Assembly: GCF_003334335.1 (NCBI RefSeq)
Contig: NZ_QOWQ01000011.1
Length of the DNA: 64,000 nt
Direction: 5' to 3' (one strand)
Origin: Escherichia coli
GTDB lineage: Bacteria > Pseudomonadota > Gammaproteobacteria > Enterobacterales > Enterobacteriaceae
How positions within the stretch are numbered: the first letter of the stretch is position 1; each line of letters starts with the position of its first letter. The notes under the pieces are model-generated. The model was not told where the DNA came from and ran no database searches. It saw only the letters and a program-made list of their open reading frames with translations. Both the position numbers and the translations under genes were made by a program. Below, in pieces: positions 12,975 to 44,811 of the stretch.

Positions 12975-13013
12975 CTATCCACGGGACGATCCCCTGCGTG
13001 ACATTCACATATA

Positions 13014-13029
13014 TGAAAAAATCGTGCCA
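13014..13029 (-). promoter_or_regulatory. Sigma-54 promoter (glnHp2-like) with a weak -12 element
   Basis: On - strand TGGCAC-GATTT-TTTCA (consensus TGGCAC-N5-TTGCA) about 40 nt upstream of the glnH start. Confidence 0.65.
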
Positions 13030-13102
13030 GTTTTGCAACTCCTTGATTTTTCGAGATGCGGCAAAAACGTGATGCACGATTTATAGGGCAATACCCTGAA
13101 GA

Positions 13103-13133
13103 TGCACCATTCTGGGGCACCAATCTGGTGCGC
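13103..13133. promoter_or_regulatory. Tandem overlapping NtrC (NRI) enhancer sites
   Basis: tgcaccattctggggca and gcaccaatctggtgcgc match NtrC consensus TGCACCA-N3-TGGTGCA; about 80-100 nt upstream of the sigma-54 promoter. Confidence 0.7.
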
Positions 13134-13362
13134 TAAAATTGTGCACTCAACACAGTGATTATTTAGCGTAAAACCTGATGAAAAAACAATCTTTATGTAA
13201 CGATTGTGTGATGATGTGGATACAAAAAATTTACTTAATCAGCTGGAGATAGCAGATGGATGCACTAAATAAGTGCGTTGAGGTGGGCTGCAAAACAAAA
13301 CGGCCTCCTGTCAGGAAGCCGCTTTTATCGGGTACTAAAGTTCTGCACCATCAGCGATGGAT

Positions 13363-14010
<648 letters not shown>

Positions 14011-15404: not shown

Positions 15405-15920
15405 ATGAAAAAAATTGCATGTCTTTCAGCACTGGCCGCAGTTCTGGCTTTCACCGCAGGTACTTCCGTAGCTGCGACTTCTACTGTAACTGGCGGTTAC
15501 GCACAGAGCGACGCTCAGGGCCAAATGAACAAAATGGGCGGTTTCAACCTGAAATACCGCTATGAAGAAGACAACAGCCCGCTGGGTGTGATCGGTTCTT
15601 TCACTTACACCGAGAAAAGCCGTACTGCAAGCTCTGGTGACTACAACAAAAACCAGTACTACGGCATCACTGCTGGTCCGGCTTACCGCATTAACGACTG
15701 GGCAAGCATCTACGGTGTAGTGGGTGTGGGTTATGGTAAATTCCAGACCACTGAATACCCGACCTACAAACACGACACCAGCGACTACGGTTTCTCCTAC
15801 GGTGCGGGTCTGCAGTTCAACCCGATGGAAAACGTTGCTCTGGACTTCTCTTACGAGCAGAGCCGTATTCGTAGCGTTGACGTAGGCACCTGGATTGCCG
15901 GTGTTGGTTACCGCTTCTAA
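15405..15920 (+). CDS. ompX: Outer membrane protein X (8-strand beta-barrel)
   Basis: Start at ATG 15405 (MKKIACLSALAAVLAFTAGTSVA signal peptide); C-terminal ...GVGYRF. Confidence 0.96.
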   Translation: MKKIACLSALAAVLAFTAGTSVAATSTVTGGYAQSDAQGQMNKMGGFNLKYRYEEDNSPLGVIGSFTYTEKSRTASSGDYNKNQYYGITAGPAYRINDWASIYGVVGVGYGKFQTTEYPTYKHDTSDYGFSYGAGLQFNPMENVALDFSYEQSRIRSVDVGTWIAGVGYRF

Positions 15921-35920: not shown

Positions 35921-36841
35921 ATGCTTAATTACGTTATCAAACGATTACTGGGGTTGATTCCGACGCTGTTTATCGTCTCGGTGCTGGTGTTTTTATTTGT
36001 CCATATGCTGCCCGGCGATCCGGCGCGATTGATTGCCGGGCCCGAAGCTGATGCGCAGGTTATAGAACTGGTGCGTCAGCAGCTGGGGTTGGATCAGCCG
36101 CTGTATCACCAGTTCTGGCACTATATCAGCAATGCTGTGCAGGGGGATTTTGGCCTGTCGATGGTGTCGCGTCGTCCGGTTGCCGATGAGATTGCCAGCC
36201 GCTTTATGCCAACGCTGTGGCTGACCATAACCAGTATGGTCTGGGCGGTTATATTTGGTATGGCGGCGGGAATTATCGCCGCCGTCTGGCGTAACCGTTG
36301 GCCGGATCGATTGAGTATGACCATTGCGGTGTCGGGGATCTCGTTTCCGGCATTTGCTCTGGGGATGCTTTTAATTCAGGTATTCTCCGTTGAACTGGGC
36401 TGGCTGCCTACCGTGGGAGCAGACAGTTGGCAGCACTACATTTTACCCTCCCTGACGCTCGGCGCGGCAGTGGCCGCCGTGATGGCGCGCTTTACCCGCG
36501 CGTCGTTTGTCGATGTTTTAAGCGAAGATTATATGCGTACCGCGAGGGCGAAAGGGGTGAGCGAAACCTGGGTTGTCCTCAAACACGGGCTACGTAACGC
36601 GATGATCCCGGTAGTGACCATGATGGGCTTACAGTTTGGCTTTTTGCTCGGTGGTTCCATCGTTGTGGAGAAAGTTTTCAACTGGCCGGGACTTGGACGC
36701 TTACTCGTTGACTCCGTAGAAATGCGTGATTACCCGGTGATTCAGGCGGAAATTCTGCTTTTCTCGCTGGAATTTATTCTTATCAACTTAGTGGTGGATG
36801 TGCTTTACGCCGCCATTAACCCGGCTATCAGGTACAAGTAA
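35921..36841 (+). CDS. gsiC: Glutathione/peptide ABC importer permease
   Basis: 306 aa; DppB-like permease. Confidence 0.95.
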
Positions 36842-36843
36842 GG

Positions 36844-37755
36844 ATGCGACTATTTAACTGGCGACGTCAGGCGGTGTTAAACGCCATGCCACTGGTCAAA
36901 CCTGACCAGGTACGTACACCGTGGCATGAATTCTGGCGACGATTTCGCCGTCAGCATATGGCGATGACCGCCGCATTATTCGTTATTTTATTGATTGTGG
37001 TGGCCATTTTTGCACGCTGGATCGCTCCCTATGACGCCGAAAATTATTTTGATTATGACAATCTGAATAACGGACCTTCTTTGCAGCACTGGTTTGGCGT
37101 CGATTCACTGGGGCGTGACATTTTCAGCCGTGTCCTGGTTGGTGCGCAAATCTCGCTGGCGGCGGGCGTGTTTGCCGTGTTTATCGGTGCGGCGATCGGG
37201 ACGTTGCTGGGCTTGCTCGCTGGATATTATGAAGGCTGGTGGGATCGGCTGATCATGCGCATTTGCGATGTGCTGTTTGCCTTCCCGGGTATTTTACTGG
37301 CGATCGCTGTTGTTGCGGTGTTGGGAAGCGGCATTGCTAACGTGATTATTGCAGTCGCCATTTTTTCCATCCCCGCGTTTGCCCGCCTGGTGCGCGGCAA
37401 CACGCTGGTGTTGAAACAGCAAACCTTTATTGAGTCAGCACGCAGTATTGGTGCCAGCGATATGACCGTTTTGTTGCGTCATATCCTGCCTGGGACCGTC
37501 TCTTCTATCGTGGTGTTTTTCACCATGCGCATTGGTACCTCGATTATCTCTGCCGCCAGCCTCTCATTTCTCGGCCTCGGTGCGCAGCCGCCGACACCAG
37601 AGTGGGGAGCAATGCTCAATGAGGCTCGAGCGGATATGGTTATCGCGCCGCATGTCGCTGTTTTTCCGGCCCTGGCTATTTTTCTGACCGTACTGGCGTT
37701 CAATTTGTTGGGCGATGGTTTACGCGATGCGCTGGATCCGAAAATTAAAGGATAG
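36844..37755 (+). CDS. gsiD: Glutathione/peptide ABC importer permease
   Basis: 303 aa; DppC-like permease; 2-nt gap after gsiC. Confidence 0.95.
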
Positions 37756-37932
37756 TTACGTTTGAATATTGCTTGAAAGGGTAATCACCTCACAGGAAAT
37801 TATTGCCCTAAGCAAGTGTTGTAACTTTCTGCTGATTTTGTAGAATCGGGTAATTTGGTTAAAAAGCCGCAGCAAGGGACAATTTTTGCAGCGGCACAGC
37901 GTTCAGATAGTTATTTTGTTAAATGTATTAAC

Positions 37933-40281
37933 ATGCTGAGTTTATACGAAAAGATAAAGATAAGGCTGATAATTTTATTTTTATTGGCAGCACTGTCATT
38001 TATTGGTCTTTTTTTCATCATTAACTATCAACTGGTATCGGAGCGCGCGGTAAAACGTGCCGATAGCCGCTTTGAACTTATTCAGAAAAACGTTGGCTAT
38101 TTCTTTAAAGATATTGAACGTTCGGCCCTGACATTAAAGGACTCACTGTATTTATTAAAAAATACAGAGGAGATTCAACGCGCCGTGATTCTTAAAATGG
38201 AAATGATGCCATTTTTAGACTCGGTGGGACTGGTACTTGATGATAATAAATATTATCTTTTTTCGCGGAGGGCGAATGATAAAATCGTTGTTTATCATCA
38301 GGAACAAGTAAATGGACCGCTTGTCGACGAGTCAGGGCGGGTTATTTTTGCCGATTTTAACCCATCGAAACGACCGTGGTCGGTGGCTTCAGATGACTCT
38401 AACAACAGCTGGAATCCGGCATACAATTGCTTTGATCGTCCGGGTAAAAAATGTATCTCTTTTACGCTACACATCAACGGCAAAGATCACGATTTGTTAG
38501 CGGTGGATAAAATTCATGTCGATTTAAACTGGCGATATCTGAACGAGTATCTTGATCAAATCAGCGCTAATGATGAAGTTCTATTTTTGAAACAAGGCCA
38601 TGAGATCATTGCCAAGAATCAACTCGCTCGTGAAAAACTGATTATTTATAATAGCGAAGGTAATTATAATATTATTGATTCTGTCGATACTGAATATATC
38701 GAAAAAACATCAGCGGTGCCAAACAACGCATTATTCGAAATCTATTTTTATTATCCTGGCGGTAATTTATTGAACGCATCAGATAAACTTTTTTATCTGC
38801 CGTTTGCGTTCATTATTATCGTATTGCTGGTGGTTTATTTAATGACCACTCGTGTGTTCCGTCGGCAATTTTCTGAAATGACAGAGCTGGTTAATACGCT
38901 GGCGTTTTTGCCTGACTCAACGGATCAAATCGAGGCTCTGAAAATTCGTGAAGGCGATGCGAAAGAGATTATCAGCATCAAAAATTCGATCGCGGAAATG
39001 AAAGATGCCGAAATTGAACGGTCAAATAAATTGCTCTCACTGATCTCTTACGATCAGGAAAGTGGTTTTATTAAAAATATGGCGATTATTGAGTCTAACA
39101 ATAATCAGTATCTGGCTGTGGGGATCATCAAACTGTGTGGTCTGGAAGCCGTGGAAGCGGTGTTTGGTGTTGATGAGCGCAATAAAATCGTCAGGAAATT
39201 GTGTCAGCGAATTGCCGAGAAATATGCGCAATGCTGCGATATCGTGACATTCAATGCCGATCTCTATTTACTTCTGTGTCGGGAAAATGTACAGACATTT
39301 ACCCGTAAAATAGCGATGGTAAACGATTTTGACAGCAGCTTTGGCTACCGCAATCTGCGCATCCATAAGTCTGCCATTTGTGAACCTTTGCAGGGGGAAA
39401 ACGCCTGGAGTTACGCAGAAAAACTGAAACTGGCGATTTCCAGTATCCGTGACCATATGTTCTCAGAGTTTATTTTCTGTGATGACGCGAAACTCAACGA
39501 AATAGAAGAGAATATCTGGATTGCGCGTAATATTCGCCATGCAATGGAAATTGGCGAACTATTCCTCGTCTATCAACCGATCGTTGATATTAACACCCGC
39601 GCCATTCTGGGCGCGGAGGCGTTGTGCCGTTGGGTGTCTGCGGAGCGGGGGATCATTTCACCGCTGAAGTTCATTACCATTGCTGAAGATATCGGGTTTA
39701 TCAATGAGCTGGGTTATCAGATTATTAAAACGGCAATGGGTGAATTCAGACATTTTAGTCAGCGTGCGTCGCTGAAGGATGATTTCTTACTGCATATTAA
39801 TGTTTCGCCCTGGCAGTTAAACGAACCACACTTTCATGAGCGTTTTACCACCATCATGAAAGAAAATGGCCTGAAGGCGAACAGCCTCTGTGTTGAGATC
39901 ACTGAAACCGTGATCGAGCGAATTAATGAACATTTTTATCTCAATATTGAACAACTGCGTAAACAAGGGGTACGGATATCGATTGATGACTTTGGCACCG
40001 GTTTGTCAAACCTGAAACGTTTTTATGAAATTAATCCAGACAGCATAAAGGTGGACTCGCAATTCACCGGCGATATTTTCGGTACTGCGGGAAAAATTGT
40101 GCGCATTATTTTCGACCTGGCACGCTATAACCGGATCCCGGTGATTGCGGAAGGCGTAGAGAGCGAAGACGTTGCGCGCGAATTAATCAAATTAGGATGT
40201 GTTCAGGCTCAGGGGTATCTGTACCAGAAACCCATGCCATTCTCCGCCTGGGATAAAAGTGGAAAATTAGTAAAAGAGTAG
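37933..40281 (+). CDS. pdeI: c-di-GMP phosphodiesterase (membrane-anchored, EAL domain)
   Basis: Start trimmed to [16 protein letters not shown] (782 aa); EAL motif (GAEALCRWV); visibly AT-rich coding sequence. Confidence 0.9.
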
Positions 40282-40288
40282 TTTACGT

Positions 40289-41617
40289 ATGTCCAGAATC
40301 AATAAGTTCGTACTTACAGTCAGTCTGCTGATTTTTATCATGATTTCAGCAGTTGCCTGCGGGATCTACACTCAAATGGTAAAGGAACGGGTGTATAGCC
40401 TGAAACAGTCCGTTATTGATACTGCTTTTGCGGTGGCAAATATTGCTGAATATCGGCGTAGCGTGGCAATTGATCTTATCAACACGCTAAATCCCACGGA
40501 GGAACAGCTGTTGGTTGGTTTGCGCACAGCTTACGCCGACTCGGTTTCCCCCTCTTATTTGTACGATGTCGGTCCTTATCTGATTTCCAGTGACGAATGT
40601 ATTCAGGTAAAGGAGTTCGAGAAAAATTATTGTGCAGATATTATGCAGGTTGTGAAGTATCGACATGTCAAAAATACAGGGTTTATCTCTTTTGACGGTA
40701 AAACCTTCGTCTATTACCTCTATCCGGTAACTCACAATCGTAGTCTGATATTTTTGCTTGGTCTGGAGCGTTTTTCTTTACTGTCAAAATCGCTGGCGAT
40801 GGACAGCGAGAACCTGATGTTCTCTCTATTTAAGAACGGTAAACCGGTGACCGGTGATGAATATAATGCTAAAAACGCCATCTTCACCGTTTCGGAAGCG
40901 ATGGAGCACTTCGCCTATTTGCCGACCGGATTGTATGTATTTGCGTATAAAAAAGATGTTTATTTGCGGGTTTGTACATTGATTATTTTCTTTGCCGCAT
41001 TGGTGGCAGTGATATCGGGTGCCAGTTGCCTCTATCTGGTACGCAGAGTGATTAATCGTGGTATTGTGGAGAAAGAAGCCATCATTAATAACCATTTTGA
41101 ACGCGTACTGGATGGCGGGCTTTTCTTTTCGGCTGCCGATGTCAAAAAACTCTACAGTATGTATAACTCGGCGTTCCTGGACGACCTGACCAAAGCAATG
41201 GGCAGAAAATCCTTTGACGAAGATTTAAAAGCGCTGCCGGAAAAAGGCGGTTATTTGTGCCTGTTTGACGTCGATAAATTCAAAAACATTAACGACACCT
41301 TCGGTCATTTGCTGGGCGATGAAGTGTTGATGAAAGTGGTGAAAATCCTTAAATCACAGATCCCGGTAGATAAAGGTAAAGTCTACCGCTTCGGCGGTGA
41401 CGAATTTGCGGTGATTTATACGGGTGGAACGCTGGAAGAGTTGCTATCGATTCTAAAAGAAATCGTTCATTTCCAGGTGGGAAGCATTAATTTAAGTACC
41501 AGTATCGGTGTAGCACATTCAAATGAATGTCCTACCGTCGAACGCTTGAAAATGCTGGCGGATGAGCGGCTGTATAAGAGTAAGAAAAACGGCAGGGCAC
41601 AGATTAGCTGGCAGTAA
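40289..41617 (+). CDS. dgcI: Diguanylate cyclase (GGDEF domain)
   Basis: 442 aa; intact GGDEF ([11 protein letters not shown]); 7-nt gap after pdeI. Confidence 0.93.
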
Positions 41618-41663
41618 TCATTATTCGCAGGCCGGACAAATGATTTTGCCCGGCCTGAATTAA

Positions 41664-42989
41664 TTAAACCCGGCTACCCCACAAATCGTACTCATCGGCG
41701 TGCTCGACTTTCACACGCAGGATATCACCCGGCTTAACGTTGGTTTCACCATTGAGATAAACCGCGCCGTCGATTTCCGGTGCATCTGCCATGCTGCGAC
41801 CAATCGCGCCTTCTTCGTCCACTTCGTCGATAATCACCAGAATTTCACGGCCCACTTTCTCTTGCAGGCGCTCGGCGGAAATCTGCTGCTGCAGCTGCAT
41901 GAAACGGTTCCAGCGTTCTTCTTTAACTTCTTCCGGAACCTGGTCAGGCAGGGCATTGGCGTCTGCACCTTCAACCGGGCTGTATTTAAAGCAGCCAACG
42001 CGATCCAGACGCGCTTCTTTCAGGAAGTCGAGTAGCATCTGGAAATCTTCTTCTGTCTCGCCAGGGAAGCCGACAATAAAGGTTGAGCGTAGGGTCAGTT
42101 CCGGGCAGATTTCGCGCCACTGTTTGATGCGCGCCAGTTGGCGATCTACAGAACCCGGACGCTTCATCAGTTTGAGAATGCGCGGGCTGGCGTGCTGCAA
42201 CGGAATGTCCAGATACGGCAGGATTTTGCCTTCTGCCATCAGTGGGATGACGTCGTCCACATGCGGATAAGGGTAAACGTAGTGCAGACGTGTCCAGATC
42301 CCCAGTTTCGATAACTGTTCGCACAGGCTGACCATGCTGGTTTTTACCGGCTCGCCGTTGTGGAAGCCAGTACGATGTTTAACATCAACGCCATAGGCGG
42401 AAGTATCCTGCGAGATCACCAGAATCTCTTTAACGCCCGCATCTACCAGACGTTTCGCTTCACTTAACACTTCGCCAATCGGACGGCTCACCAGGTCGCC
42501 GCGCATAGACGGAATAATGCAGAAGGTGCAGCGGTGATTACAGCCTTCAGAAATTTTCAGATAGGCATAATGACGCGGCGTCAGTTTCACACCTTGTTCT
42601 GGCACCAGGCTCAGGAATGGGTTGTGTTTCGGTTTTGGCACGTAGTGATGAACGTGCTCCAGAACCTGCTCATAGCTATGAGGCCCGGTGATTTCCAGCA
42701 CTTTCGGGTGGACTTCGCGGATCTGATCTTCTTTTGCCCCCAGACAACCGGTCACAATAACCTTGCCGTTTTCATTCAACGCTTCACCAATGGCTTCCAG
42801 TGATTCTTGTACCGCGCTGTCAATAAAGCCGCAGGTGTTGACGATCACCATGTCCGCATCGTCATAGCTCGGTACCACGTCATAACCTTCAGTGCGGAGT
42901 TCGGTGAGAATACGCTCTGAATCAACAAGGTTTTTCGGACAGCCAAGGGAAACAAAGCCGATTTTCGGCTGGGGAGTTACTTTGCTCAT
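41664..42989 (-). CDS. rimO: Ribosomal protein S12 methylthiotransferase (radical SAM)
   Basis: 441 aa; radical [11 protein letters not shown]; N-terminal MTTase Cys triad. Confidence 0.96.
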
Positions 42990-43201
42990 AGCTTAAAAAA
43001 TATTCAGTTACAGGAAAGGTCAGGGCAGGGATTCTACAGAGTTCTGGATAAAATTTGTATCGCAATCTCATTCGCTGGCGGAGGCGAAGGAAATGTAAAT
43101 TTTGTTAATTCGGCGTGAAGAATTGATCCTGGACAGCATTTTGCTCAAAAAATAGCCATACTATTTAATTGCAACAAGGCTGGGAAGAGGAGGATCGAAG
43201 T

Positions 43202-43585
43202 ATGTTCGTTGACAGACAGCGAATCGATCTGCTGAACCGGTTGATCGACGCACGCGTTGACCTCGCCGCATACGTGCAACTGAGGAAGGCAAAAGGATAC
43301 ATGTCCGTCAGCGAAAGCAATCATCTACGAGATAACTTTTTTAAACTGAATCGCGAACTGCACGATAAATCGCTGCGGTTGAATCTTCATCTGGATCAGG
43401 AAGAGTGGAGTGCTCTTCATCATGCTGAAGAAGCATTAGCGACAGCCGCAGTATGTTTGATGAGTGGGCACCATGATTGCCCGACTGTTATTACCGTCAA
43501 CGCCGATAAGCTTGAAAATTGTCTGATGAGCTTAACGCTGAGTATCCAGAGCCTGCAGAAGCACGCCATGCTTGAGAAGGCCTGA
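43202..43585 (+). CDS. bssR: Biofilm regulator BssR
   Basis: Start trimmed to MFVDRQRIDLLNRL at 43202 (127 aa) with GAGGAG RBS at 43187-43192. Confidence 0.9.
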   Translation: MFVDRQRIDLLNRLIDARVDLAAYVQLRKAKGYMSVSESNHLRDNFFKLNRELHDKSLRLNLHLDQEEWSALHHAEEALATAAVCLMSGHHDCPTVITVNADKLENCLMSLTLSIQSLQKHAMLEKA

Positions 43586-43590
43586 AAACT

Positions 43591-43615
43591 AAGGGGGAGA
43601 AAGCGTCTCCCCCTT
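43591..43615 (+). terminator. Stem-loop downstream of bssR (possible terminator)
   Basis: aagggggagaaagcgtctccccctt hairpin 6 nt after the bssR stop; weak U-tract. Confidence 0.5.
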
Positions 43616-43695
43616 CATGTTTAAGTTTTTGTAAAAATGAATTTGTTATCTCCTCCACTGACTACGCTTTAAGCCAGAGTCAATCCGGAGGCGTT

Positions 43696-44811
43696 ATGCA
43701 TCGACAATCCTTTTTCCTTGTGCCCCTTATTTGTCTTTCTTCCGCTCTCTGGGCGGCTCCTGCAACGGTAAATGTCGAAGTACTGCAAGACAAACTCGAC
43801 CATCCCTGGGCACTGGCCTTTTTACCCGATAATCACGGTATGTTAATCACTCTGCGCGGCGGCGAGTTGCGTCACTGGCAAGCAGGAAAAGGATTATCTG
43901 CGCCGCTTTCCGGAGTTCCGGACGTTTGGGCGCACGGGCAGGGCGGCCTGCTGGACGTGGTTTTAGCGCCTGATTTTGCTCAGTCTCGCCGCATCTGGTT
44001 AAGTTATTCCGAAGTTGGCGATGATGGCAAAGCCGGAACTGCTGTGGGTTATGGCCGCTTAAGTGATGATCTCTCAAAAGTGACCGACTTCCGCACCGTC
44101 TTTCGCCAGATGCCAAAACTGTCTACCGGCAACCATTTTGGCGGGCGGCTGGTATTCGACGGTAAAGGTTATCTTTTTATTGCTCTGGGCGAAAACAATC
44201 AGCGCCCGACGGCGCAGGATCTGGATAAATTACAGGGCAAACTGGTGCGTCTGACCGACCAGGGCGAAATCCCGGATGATAATCCTTTTATAAAGGAATC
44301 CGGTGCGCGCGCCGAGATCTGGTCTTATGGCATTCGTAATCCGCAAGGAATGGCGATGAATCCGTGGAGTAATGCACTGTGGCTGAATGAACATGGCCCG
44401 CGCGGTGGTGATGAAATTAATATCCCGCAAAAAGGCAAAAACTACGGCTGGCCGCTGGCAACCTGGGGAATCAACTATTCAGGCTTTAAGATACCGGAAG
44501 CGAAAGGGGAGATCGTCGCCGGGACCGAGCAACCTGTTTTTTACTGGAAAGATTCGCCCGCTGTGAGCGGCATGGCCTTCTATAACAGCGATAAATTCCC
44601 CCAGTGGCAGCAAAAATTATTTATTGGCGCGCTGAAAGATAAAGATGTCATTGTGATGAGCGTCAACGGCGACAAAGTGACAGAAGATGGCCGTATTTTA
44701 ACGGACAGAGGGCAGCGAATTCGTGATGTTCGCACTGGACCCGACGGTTATTTATACGTTCTCACCGACGAGTCCAGTGGGGAATTACTTAAAGTTAGCC
44801 CACGCAATTAG
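43696..44811 (+). CDS. yliI: Soluble aldose sugar dehydrogenase (PQQ-dependent beta-propeller)
   Basis: 371 aa with signal peptide; recognised YliI. Confidence 0.93.

Follow-up and report, generated by a model that had tools for sequence, protein, structure and literature searches.

The pdeI-dgcI pair of Escherichia coli: an AT-rich, H-NS-bound c-di-GMP islet probably gained once in the Escherichia ancestor

Introduction

Between the convergent genes gsiD and rimO, Escherichia coli carries two neighbouring genes, pdeI and dgcI, for a predicted c-di-GMP phosphodiesterase and a predicted diguanylate cyclase. How did this pair come to lie there, and what keeps it in check? An earlier note on the sequence proposed an old horizontal acquisition and probable silencing by H-NS. 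Here, we analysed the locus within a window of 64,000 nucleotides, that is, the whole stretch of DNA under study (contig NZ_QOWQ01000011.1, assembly GCF_003334335.1). The locus proves to be the pdeI-dgcI (yliE-yliF) pair already well known from E. coli; it forms an AT-rich insertion of 3.9 kb. Our main reading, to which we assign a probability of roughly 0.8, is a single gain of the cassette in the Escherichia ancestor, followed by vertical inheritance, of an H-NS-coated c-di-GMP module.

Results

Layout of the locus

Genes were identified by megablast against annotated E. coli genomes, and the annotation of pdeI was taken from RefSeq. The order is gsiABCD, pdeI (+), dgcI (+), rimO (41664-42989, -) and then bssR. 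The last of these lies one gene further on, next after rimO, where the earlier note had placed it, and its tie to the islet is one of position only. The annotated start of pdeI is the ATG at 37933; the mechanical open reading frame begins at TTG 37855. The islet and its right edge comprise the following features.

37756..37932, + strand: AT-rich spacer from the gsiD stop codon to the pdeI start (G+C 0.364 over 37756-37854)
37819..37846, + strand: promoter-like element TTGTAA-16 nt-TAGAAT (consensus scan, 9/12 matches)
37933..40281, + strand: pdeI (yliE), 782 aa (RefSeq annotation, Pfam)
40282..40288, + strand: 7-nt spacer TTTACGT from the pdeI stop (TAG, 40279-40281) to the dgcI ATG (40289), read from the sequence
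40289..41617, + strand: dgcI (yliF), 442 aa (Pfam GAPES2 and GGDEF)
41271..41280, + strand: exact H-NS high-affinity motif TCGATAAATT, the sole exact match in the window
41628..41657, no strand assigned: REP-like hairpin where dgcI and rimO converge (RNA fold -20.3 kcal/mol, z = -4.24)

The spacer at 37756..37932 marks the left edge of the insertion and holds the promoter region for pdeI-dgcI. Nothing corresponding to it is present between gsiD and rimO in Citrobacter, Enterobacter, Mangrovibacter and Salmonella, where these genes are 45-116 bp apart. E. coli, E. albertii and E. fergusonii share the block ATTTTGTAGAATC without change, against 63% conservation in the surrounding spacer; the TTGTAA-16 nt-TAGAAT element may act as a promoter. 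The tables of Higashi 2016 (PMC4720273) name a transcription unit yliEF, and their S3 Table places a known yliEF promoter in the yliD-yliE intergenic region. Inside the islet, promoter-like and terminator-like sites numbered 9 and 7 against 10.8 and 6.0 expected; with no excess, the scan gives no sign of spurious intragenic promoters. No Rfam match was found in 36500-44000, even at E <= 1.

At the other end, the hairpin resembles that of the Citrobacter werkmanii gsiD-rimO spacer (GTAGGCCGGATAAGACG...CTTACCCGGCCTAC compared with GCAGGCCGGACAAATGATTTTGCCCGGCCTG) and is probably an ancestral element of this spacer and the right insertion edge. It was missed by the terminator scan because it has no T run.

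The two genes share a strand with minimal spacing, and their adjacency is kept in diverged copies. The 7-nt distance given by the earlier note was confirmed from the stop and start codons; in four further copies of the cassette (34-43% identity), it ranges from -23 to +9 nt. This spacing is in line with co-transcription of pdeI and dgcI, and the two may also be co-translated through coupling.

Composition of the islet

The G+C content of 37756-41617 is 0.420 (42.0%) compared with 0.510 (51.0%) across the whole window. These 9 points lie far beyond the 2-point margin within which the earlier note would have given up its description of the pair as markedly AT-rich. Among all 3862-bp sliding windows (mean 0.509, sd 0.024), this stretch is the minimum, about 3.7 sd below the mean. 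Both edges are sharp: the 500-bp profile drops at 37750 from 0.53 to 0.37-0.41 and recovers at 41500-41750 to 0.52-0.55, and the flanking gsiD and rimO stand at 0.531 and 0.526. Thus, the islet differs distinctly in composition from the host DNA around it.

Of the window's 49 long open reading frames, pdeI and dgcI have the lowest G+C, GC1 and GC3. All three codon positions are depressed, GC1 and GC2 as much as GC3. The FYMINK residues make up 0.35 and 0.33 of the two products (window 0.247 +/- 0.039), a departure of +2.6 sd, so the AT-richness could in part be a feature of the proteins instead of a mark left by a foreign genome; amino-acid composition (codon positions 1 and 2) accounts for about half of the excess.

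Codon adaptation, which the earlier note had named as a further check, was measured with Sharp-Li weights. CAI was ordinary, at 0.275 for pdeI and 0.290 for dgcI in a window that spans 0.22-0.74 (0.343 +/- 0.096), and so was rare-codon use. Since CAI did not discriminate the islet genes, codon adaptation was rejected as a mark of foreignness. The raw synonymous-codon distance was unremarkable until corrected for gene length. GC3 corrected for amino-acid content was low for both genes (pdeI -5.3 sd, dgcI -2.4 sd).

The depression of GC1 and GC2, the FYMINK values and the ordinary CAI would all suit a different history, in which the common ancestor of Enterobacteriaceae already had the pair and the other genera lost it, its AT-richness being due to weak expression and to the residues that make up membrane and periplasmic sensor proteins. 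The same account would also fit the behaviour of G+C over time: in three Escherichia species, the chromosomal pair stays at 0.39-0.43 with dS saturated, and no drift toward the genome value is seen. This steadiness is not predicted by simple amelioration and counts against acquisition. The corrected GC3 of pdeI speaks against the ancestral history, as does the distribution of the pair, described below.

Domain content of DgcI and PdeI

DgcI consists of TM1, a periplasmic GAPES2 sensor, TM2 and an active-type GGDEF domain. Hydrophobic segments lie at 4-31 and 223-252; Pfam placed GAPES2 at 26-229 (E 2e-143) and GGDEF at 295-437 (PF00990, E 1.6e-24), and TIGR00254 scored above its cut-off. The active site, with GGDEF at residue 369, and the metal-binding Asp are intact, and RFGGDEF and FDVDKFKxIND are kept in all DgcI paralogues. 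The published signature table lists the site as KNDHDRGGDEF (Spurbeck 2012). DgcI has no RxxD inhibition site; KGKV stands five residues upstream of GGDEF. E. coli DgcI is a predicted cyclase; activity is published for the Shigella flexneri orthologue, which gave the highest c-di-GMP of four cyclases in a GG-dependent manner. DgcI was toxic in a published two-hybrid screen.

PdeI has a related plan, with TM1, a periplasmic CHASE9-containing sensor, TM2, a degenerate GGDEF-like region and an EAL domain (hydrophobic segments 7-36 and 282-310; Pfam CHASE9 at 35-150 and EAL at 532-767). The EAL profile is matched over its full length (PF00563, E 2e-69, model positions 2-236 of 236), and the solved EAL domain 5yrp matches at E 1e-43. 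Every catalytic and metal-binding residue (EALxR, N, ExxE, DD, K, E, Q) is present, in the motifs EALCRW, NVSP, EITE, DDFG, KVD, EGVE and QGY, which are kept in four paralogues; Table 1 of Spurbeck 2012 likewise gives each PdeI EAL signature residue at consensus. Judged by these intact motifs, the EAL domain is predicted to be catalytically competent.

The middle region of PdeI lacks both the GG(D/E)EF motif and the catalytic Asp. No match to the Pfam GGDEF model was obtained in PdeI, and only full-length NCBIfam models align, from residue ~377; pairwise BLAST found no significant similarity between this region and the GGDEF domain of DgcI. The mapping of the motifs draws on the NCBIfam alignments, the paralogue alignment and the literature. 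By eye, the GGDEF position in five cassettes reads NADLY, SSDLY, NKNKY, STETY or SPYKY, and with the motif lost PdeI itself is not a plausible cyclase. The direction of its effect on c-di-GMP is disputed in print: overexpression of pdeI raised c-di-GMP 11-fold in one report, and in phage N4 resistance overexpressed pdeI acted like other phosphodiesterases. G412S in PdeI is reported to abolish the rise seen on overproduction, and the Gly equivalent to G412 is conserved in the paralogous cassettes.

Distribution and age of the insertion

Every one of the 5426 complete E. coli genomes has a match to the region; in 5390 of them it is covered to at least 80%, at 95-100% identity, and the pair lies between gsiD and rimO. 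At the same gsiD-rimO site, E. albertii has the pair with 88% (PdeI) and 93% (DgcI) identity, and E. fergusonii with 70% and 78% and a G+C of 0.40 and 0.39; GsiD is 97% and 87% identical in these two species. A protein fragment from E. marmotae was recovered as well. Between species, dN/dS is 0.05-0.08, which indicates purifying selection on both genes; for yliF within E. coli, Higashi 2016 (PMC4720273) gives dN/dS as 0.0041/0.0775.

The site is empty in related genera. A scan of a genome collection yielded at least 11 Enterobacterales loci among 80 listed, and GsiD look-ups added four more. In eight other Enterobacteriaceae, gsiD and rimO stand directly tail to tail; they are 45-116 bp apart in Salmonella enterica, S. 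bongori, Citrobacter werkmanii, C. amalonaticus, Enterobacter sp. Bisph1, Enterobacter sp. BIGb0383 and Mangrovibacter. Three further Enterobacteriaceae have other or no called content between gsiD and rimO, among them Klebsiella, where ~540 bp without a called gene separate the two. These data are most simply explained by one insertion in the ancestor of Escherichia. An ancestral pair would require several independent, near-precise deletions (in the Salmonella, Citrobacter and Enterobacter/Mangrovibacter lineages) instead of one gain.

Relatives of the cassette lie on mobile elements. Paralogous cassettes in the same order, with 34-43% identity to the islet and a G+C of 33-35%, are found in E. 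ruysiae as well as on plasmids of E. coli and Salmonella, often immediately preceding bcsABC. An IncHI1B plasmid and E. ruysiae each carry the cassette with bcsABC; on a Salmonella plasmid it sits beside ccdAB and a KfrA-domain gene. About 100 plasmids hold the cassette or a DgcI relative at 34-41% identity. Such mobile relatives have already been described (bioRxiv 10.1101/2025.05.09.653004).

Classical hallmarks of mobility are missing. As the earlier note had stated, the window copy has no integrase or IS element in its list of open reading frames, and a repeat search found no convincing flanking direct repeat; there is no tRNA anchor either. Direct and inverted repeats were considered as insertion scars and discarded, the matches being short and due to chance, such as 15 nt shared by 37703 and 41307, the second copy inside dgcI. 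A word-indexed donor search of 5.8 billion clustered proteins returned nothing between 43% and 70% identity. An exhaustive search for the GAPES2 sensor gave 36 representatives among 1.84 billion clusters, mostly E. coli protein fragments, and two full-length distant matches on ~1.5 kb contigs without context. With so few representatives no donor can be named, which is a point against acquisition. The missing integrase, IS element, tRNA gene and repeats are another, yet their absence is expected for an old insertion.

Weighing these results, we regard an ancestral pair as quite unlikely. The lack of mobility genes and repeats would agree with it; among the 5.8 billion clustered proteins, however, the search found no non-Escherichia orthologue exceeding 43% identity, and the paralogous cassettes are plasmid-borne. 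A recent or recurrent acquisition, with the islet still moving among E. coli strains, is very improbable. Mobilizable plasmids do carry relatives, IS1 insertions and one IS1-bounded deletion are present at the locus, and a neighbouring rimO-proximal spot varies between strains. Nevertheless, the islet occupies the same site in nearly every E. coli genome and in E. albertii and E. fergusonii, the divergence of PdeI scales with that of the flanking GsiD, and plasmid copies of 34-43% identity are not the source of the chromosomal alleles.

The old horizontal acquisition proposed by the earlier note is thus upheld by a pair at one site in three Escherichia species, not throughout Enterobacteriaceae, by empty sites elsewhere and by plasmid-borne relatives. 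Additionally, the S2 Table of Higashi 2016 (PMC4720273) tags yliF 'L/N', which, judging by the methods cited there, we read as transfer predicted by both the Lawrence-Ochman and Nakamura methods; this tag points the same way.

H-NS occupancy and expression

The earlier note had referred the question of silencing to H-NS ChIP data, and published ChAP-seq tables give the islet as H-NS-bound. Specifically, the yliD-yliE (gsiD-pdeI) spacer, yliF and the yliEF unit are listed as bound in the S2 and S3 Tables of Higashi 2016 (PMC4720273), and yliG at its 3' end only. Sites with at most one mismatch to the high-affinity motif of Lang et al. 2007 fall inside the islet in 3 of 11 cases, the islet being 6% of the window, an enrichment that lends weak support because the numbers are small.

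Published expression is low and heterogeneous. DgcI was undetectable and dgcI showed 'very low if any expression', and pdeI marked a subpopulation of 2.1-2.6%, the rare expressing cells (~2%) lying at the base of a static biofilm. A native 250-bp promoter on a plasmid drove pdeI in a subpopulation.

Induction at 37 °C over 23 °C is typical for H-NS-repressed genes. Both pdeI and dgcI are reported to be expressed more highly at 37 °C than at 23 °C.

H-NS silencing would account for the low expression, and the probable silencing of the earlier note gains published occupancy of the spacer, dgcI and the yliEF unit; the silencing step itself we infer. In the literature searched, no report of yliEF derepression in an hns mutant was found. 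Alternatively, H-NS occupancy may be incidental and low expression may come from a weak promoter or specific regulators, with no xenogeneic silencing. That literature result for pdeI and dgcI, the plasmid-borne native promoter that acts in a subpopulation and the weakly enriched motif matches would fit this explanation, which we nonetheless consider unlikely: H-NS binding spans the promoter spacer as well as coding DNA, the temperature response is that of H-NS-repressed genes, and a multi-kb tract at 42% G+C falls in the range preferred by H-NS filaments.

Discussion

Taken together, these observations lead us to propose a single gain followed by vertical inheritance. A 3.9-kb two-gene cassette would have entered the convergent gsiD-rimO spacer in the common Escherichia ancestor, just past the gsiD stop codon and ahead of a pre-existing hairpin. 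Its products would be two inner-membrane enzymes that make and break down c-di-GMP, both equipped with a periplasmic sensor of their own: in PdeI a CHASE9-type sensor is joined to a degenerate GGDEF-like region and a presumably competent EAL domain, in DgcI a GAPES2 sensor to a GGDEF domain that lacks a feedback-inhibition site. The yliEF genes would be read as a single unit from the conserved promoter-like element in the AT-rich spacer 5' of pdeI. Being about 9 points more AT-rich than its surroundings, the DNA would for that reason be coated by H-NS, from the end of gsiD to the end of rimO, and this coating would in turn hold expression very low under standard conditions. Expression may then be conditional (37 °C over 23 °C) or confined to rare cells (~2%, at the base of a static biofilm), and the pair, once made, may constitute a self-contained module, source and sink in one, that receives two inputs from outside.

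Cassette relatives stand directly ahead of accessory cellulose synthase operons on plasmids; the chromosomal cassette is therefore most likely the orphaned regulatory head of a mobile cellulose synthase unit, as we infer from this arrangement. A bolder extension is that PdeI and DgcI form one sensory device, in which PdeI activates DgcI (or another cyclase) via GGDEF-GGDEF contact, and that the H-NS-silenced head of the former cellulose synthase operon fires in rare surface-attached cells. This idea would fit two facts, namely the loss of the GGDEF motif and metal-binding Asp in all five cassettes and the conservation of Gly412, whose change to Ser abolishes the rise in c-di-GMP. We put it forward as a speculation, more doubtful than probable by a good distance.

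The genes, their domains, the predicted foreign origin, H-NS binding and mobile relatives are all already in print. Our analysis adds the empty site in eight other Enterobacteriaceae, the likely insertion point directly past the gsiD stop codon and ahead of the retained hairpin, and an AT-richness that persists genus-wide under purifying selection.

Compared with known systems, the locus is that of E. coli K-12 pdeI (yliE, b0833) and dgcI (yliF, b0834), with megablast identity of 99-100%, the same neighbours, and domain content and motifs as published; nothing differs in substance. O157:H7 has a toxin-antitoxin insertion beside rimO, which the window copy does not have. The dosC-dosP (dgcO-pdeO) operon likewise joins an antagonistic cyclase and phosphodiesterase. 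DosC and DosP, however, are haem sensors of the cytoplasm, and their cyclase gene precedes the phosphodiesterase gene; PdeI and DgcI sit in the membrane and have periplasmic sensors, and their gene order is the reverse. Classical islands have a tRNA anchor, an integrase and repeats; the islet has none of these and is only two genes long. Higashi et al. 2016 (PLoS Genet, PMC4720273) list it by name among the core genes of E. coli that were acquired long ago and are bound by H-NS, in segments common to the strains studied.

Further counterparts are the plasmid-borne and accessory CHASE9-EAL and GAPES2-GGDEF cassettes by the bcsA2-4 cellulose synthase clusters described by the Roemling laboratory (bioRxiv 10.1101/2025.05.09.653004). 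These have the same gene order, near-zero spacing and the same architecture, in which the EAL domain has every catalytic residue, the degenerate GGDEF-like region retains the G412-equivalent Gly and the cyclase carries RFGGDEF. They differ from the islet in that bcsABC follows them or they are plasmid-borne, whereas the chromosomal islet has no adjacent effector operon; their identity to it is 34-43%, and their G+C is 0.33-0.35 compared with 0.42 in the islet.

The pdeI-dgcI islet is compositionally distinct

The islet at 37756-41617 begins with the first base past the gsiD stop codon and ends with the stop codon of dgcI. Gene order was taken from the RefSeq annotation of a strain 100% identical to the window.

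5' of pdeI, plus strand: iaaA and gsiABCD
37819-37846: predicted promoter-like element, holding a ATTTTGTAGAATC block
37933-40281, plus strand: pdeI (yliE)
40289-41617, plus strand: dgcI (yliF)
41664-42989, minus strand: rimO (yliG)
beyond rimO: bssR, yliI, gstB and dacC

The 7-nt pdeI-dgcI gap and the gene neighbourhood described in the earlier note were confirmed in every detail by sequence and annotation. The ATTTTGTAGAATC block is invariant across three species.

The AT-richness that the note had claimed was borne out. The G+C content of the islet is 0.420 versus 0.510 for the window, the lowest value for any 3862-bp sliding window (mean 0.509, sd 0.024), and the 500-bp profile has sharp edges at both ends. 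The most AT-rich part, 37750-39000 (0.37-0.41), is the sensor half of pdeI. Among the window's 49 long ORFs, pdeI and dgcI have the lowest G+C, GC1 and GC3 and nearly the lowest GC2. Because the AT-coded FYMINK residues are raised in both proteins (0.35 in PdeI, 0.33 in DgcI, versus 0.247 ± 0.039 for the window), amino-acid composition accounts for a substantial share of the AT excess; GC3 conditioned on amino-acid content nevertheless remains low, at -5.3 sd (pdeI) and -2.4 sd (dgcI). Codon adaptation, which had been proposed as a test of foreignness, does not discriminate, whereas base composition does: CAI, computed with Sharp-Li weights, is ordinary (0.275 and 0.290 versus 0.343 ± 0.096), near that of gsiA, gsiC and gsiD, and rare-codon use is not unusual relative to the window.

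Only one other 1-kb stretch of the window falls below 45% G+C (13001-14000, 0.447), around a minus-strand 167-aa ORF; close to it, ORF 15405-15920 stands out with a CAI of 0.74, by a wide margin the highest in the window.

The pair occupies one site in three Escherichia species

The window derives from the E. coli chromosome: region 37000-42500 aligns at 95-100% identity with every one of the 5426 complete E. coli genomes, of which 5390 reach a coverage of at least 80%. Coverage is below 80% in 36. IS1 events occur at the locus in a few strains (comparison locus L003, 4832-5660; match H1). In LD27-1, IS1 lies under the match and pdeI is annotated just as a CHASE9 protein; HCP30S3_I2 carries an IS1-bounded deletion from about 37790 to the dgcI 3' end. 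Several PLSDB "plasmid" records with pdeI at >99% identity (0.7-4.9 Mb, plus two of 55 kb from single-cell assemblies) look like misfiled chromosome sequence.

A RimO-based genome scan was followed by local tblastn, with further sites added via GsiD look-ups. Among the loci listed, the pair lies at the same site in E. albertii (PdeI 88%, DgcI 93% identity) and E. fergusonii (70% and 78%; G+C 0.40 and 0.39), where the flanking proteins are 78-98% identical. In other genera, gsiD and rimO face each other tail to tail across 45-110 bp in Citrobacter werkmanii, Enterobacter sp. Bisph1, Enterobacter sp. BIGb0383 and Mangrovibacter. The site is likewise empty in Citrobacter amalonaticus (87 bp) and in two Salmonella species, S. 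enterica (90 bp) and S. bongori (116 bp). In Klebsiella pneumoniae the two genes are separated by about 540 bp without a called gene (L093, 7234-7770); Enterobacter sp. Ag1 has an OmpV/MipA-like ORF in place of the pair, and Superficieibacter about 3 kb of unrelated ORFs. A collection of 5.8 billion clusters contained no orthologues at 43-70% identity. A single gain on the Escherichia stem is the simplest explanation of the whole distribution, whereas loss of the pair outside Escherichia would require several near-precise deletions. The distribution thus supports the old horizontal acquisition that the note had proposed.

A hairpin at 41628-41657 between dgcI and rimO (-20.3 kcal/mol, z -4.2) resembles one in the Citrobacter gsiD-rimO spacer; we therefore place the insertion point after the stop codon of gsiD and ahead of the hairpin. 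As the note had stated, the window copy carries no integrase or IS element (ORF list), and a repeat search found no convincing flanking repeat. The islet has no Rfam match.

The spot 3' of rimO varies by lineage (window 41618-41663; comparison loci L002 7619-8618, L005 1959-2729, L006 11327-14369, L010 11327-12203, L093 7234-7770). K-12-type strains have a REP-like hairpin, which in O157:H7 is replaced by about 1 kb with an MqsA-like HTH antitoxin and a RelE/ParE toxin; E. albertii and Superficieibacter have a HEAT-repeat ORF resembling the "putative lyase" PRK09687. Nearby, the moeA-gsiA interval contains iaaA in E. coli, Salmonella enterica, Citrobacter and Klebsiella but lacks it in E. fergusonii and S. 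bongori (L086 2346-2580; L092 1314-1516). The K. pneumoniae genome examined has GsiD called as an extended 410-aa product (L093 6001-7233) and a LacY-like MFS transporter gene between rimO and bssR (L093 9329-10570).

Diverged cassettes on plasmids

Tblastn against plasmids found relatives of PdeI (38% identity) and DgcI (34-41%) on about 100 plasmids from E. coli and one from Salmonella. IncHI1B plasmid pS143-2 carries the order CHASE9-EAL, GGDEF, bcsA, bcsB, with bcsC further on. In E. ruysiae, bcsABC likewise follows the cassette; a Salmonella plasmid that bears ccdAB plus a KfrA-domain gene carries the cassette but no bcs genes. The association of such cassettes with bcs is described in a 2025 Roemling-laboratory preprint (bioRxiv 10.1101/2025.05.09.653004). 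These paralogous cassettes have a gene spacing of -23 to +9 nt, a G+C of 0.33-0.35 and conserved EAL and GGDEF catalytic residues. Every cassette encodes a phosphodiesterase whose GGDEF-like region is degenerate and retains the Gly412 equivalent.

GAPES2, the sensor of DgcI, is a tiny family: 36 of 1.84 billion cluster representatives match at E <= 0.001, mostly fragments of the E. coli protein, and that search names no donor lineage. The sensor (dgcI part 40289-41068) hardly occurs outside Escherichia and its plasmids.

H-NS binding and selection

In the S2 and S3 Tables of Higashi et al. 2016 (PMC4720273; ChAP-seq in K-12, SE11 and SE15), yliF, the yliEF unit, the yliD-yliE spacer and yliD are H-NS-bound, and yliG is bound at its 3' end only. 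As tabulated there, the H-NS patch covers the islet and spills slightly into both flanks. The same tables tag yliF "L/N" in the transferred-gene column, which we read, from the methods cited in that paper, as Lawrence-Ochman plus Nakamura. The H-NS motif TCGATAAATT (Lang 2007) has its sole exact match in the window at 41271, inside dgcI, and of the 11 sites with one mismatch or none, three are in the islet, a distribution that hints weakly at H-NS there. A search of the literature found no hns-mutant expression data for pdeI or dgcI; we infer H-NS silencing of the islet, a step beyond the published binding, where the note had called it probable.

Substitution rates show that both genes are maintained and not decaying. 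Comparing pdeI of E. coli with that of E. fergusonii gives a dN/dS of 0.078 (dS saturated), and comparing dgcI of E. coli with that of E. albertii gives 0.049; within E. coli, the tables give yliF dN 0.0041 and dS 0.0775 (Higashi 2016).

PdeI, DgcI and c-di-GMP

In PdeI (782 aa), hydrophobic segments span 7-36 and 282-310, and Pfam places a CHASE9 domain at 35-150 and a full-length EAL domain at 532-767, with all EAL signature residues present. Between TM2 and EAL sits a GGDEF-like region, undetected by Pfam, aligned by NCBIfam full-length models from residue ~377 and described as divergent by two sources, one being the preprint bioRxiv 10.1101/2025.05.09.653004. Mapped by eye, this region carries NADLY at the motif position and lacks the first metal-binding Asp; Gly412 is retained. 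DgcI (442 aa) combines two hydrophobic segments (4-31 and 223-252), a GAPES2 domain (26-229, E 2e-143) and a GGDEF domain (295-437) with RFGGDEF intact and the upstream RxxD site absent.

According to published work, PdeI overproduction raises c-di-GMP 11-fold, an effect abolished by G412S, yet pdeI overexpression confers phage N4 resistance, like other phosphodiesterases. PdeI itself cannot plausibly synthesize c-di-GMP; therefore, the reported rise requires a partner protein, and the most obvious candidate is DgcI, encoded next to it. Shigella DgcI is reported as the most productive among four cyclases. Published expression data describe DgcI protein as undetectable and yliF as having "very low if any expression"; both genes are higher at 37 C than at 23 C in CFT073, and pdeI marks 2.1-2.6% of cells in static biofilm.

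Taken together, these data support both the observation and the interpretation of the earlier note. The residual point is mechanistic, namely the source of the positive effect of PdeI on c-di-GMP. The locus is textbook E. coli, and each element of the story has been published.
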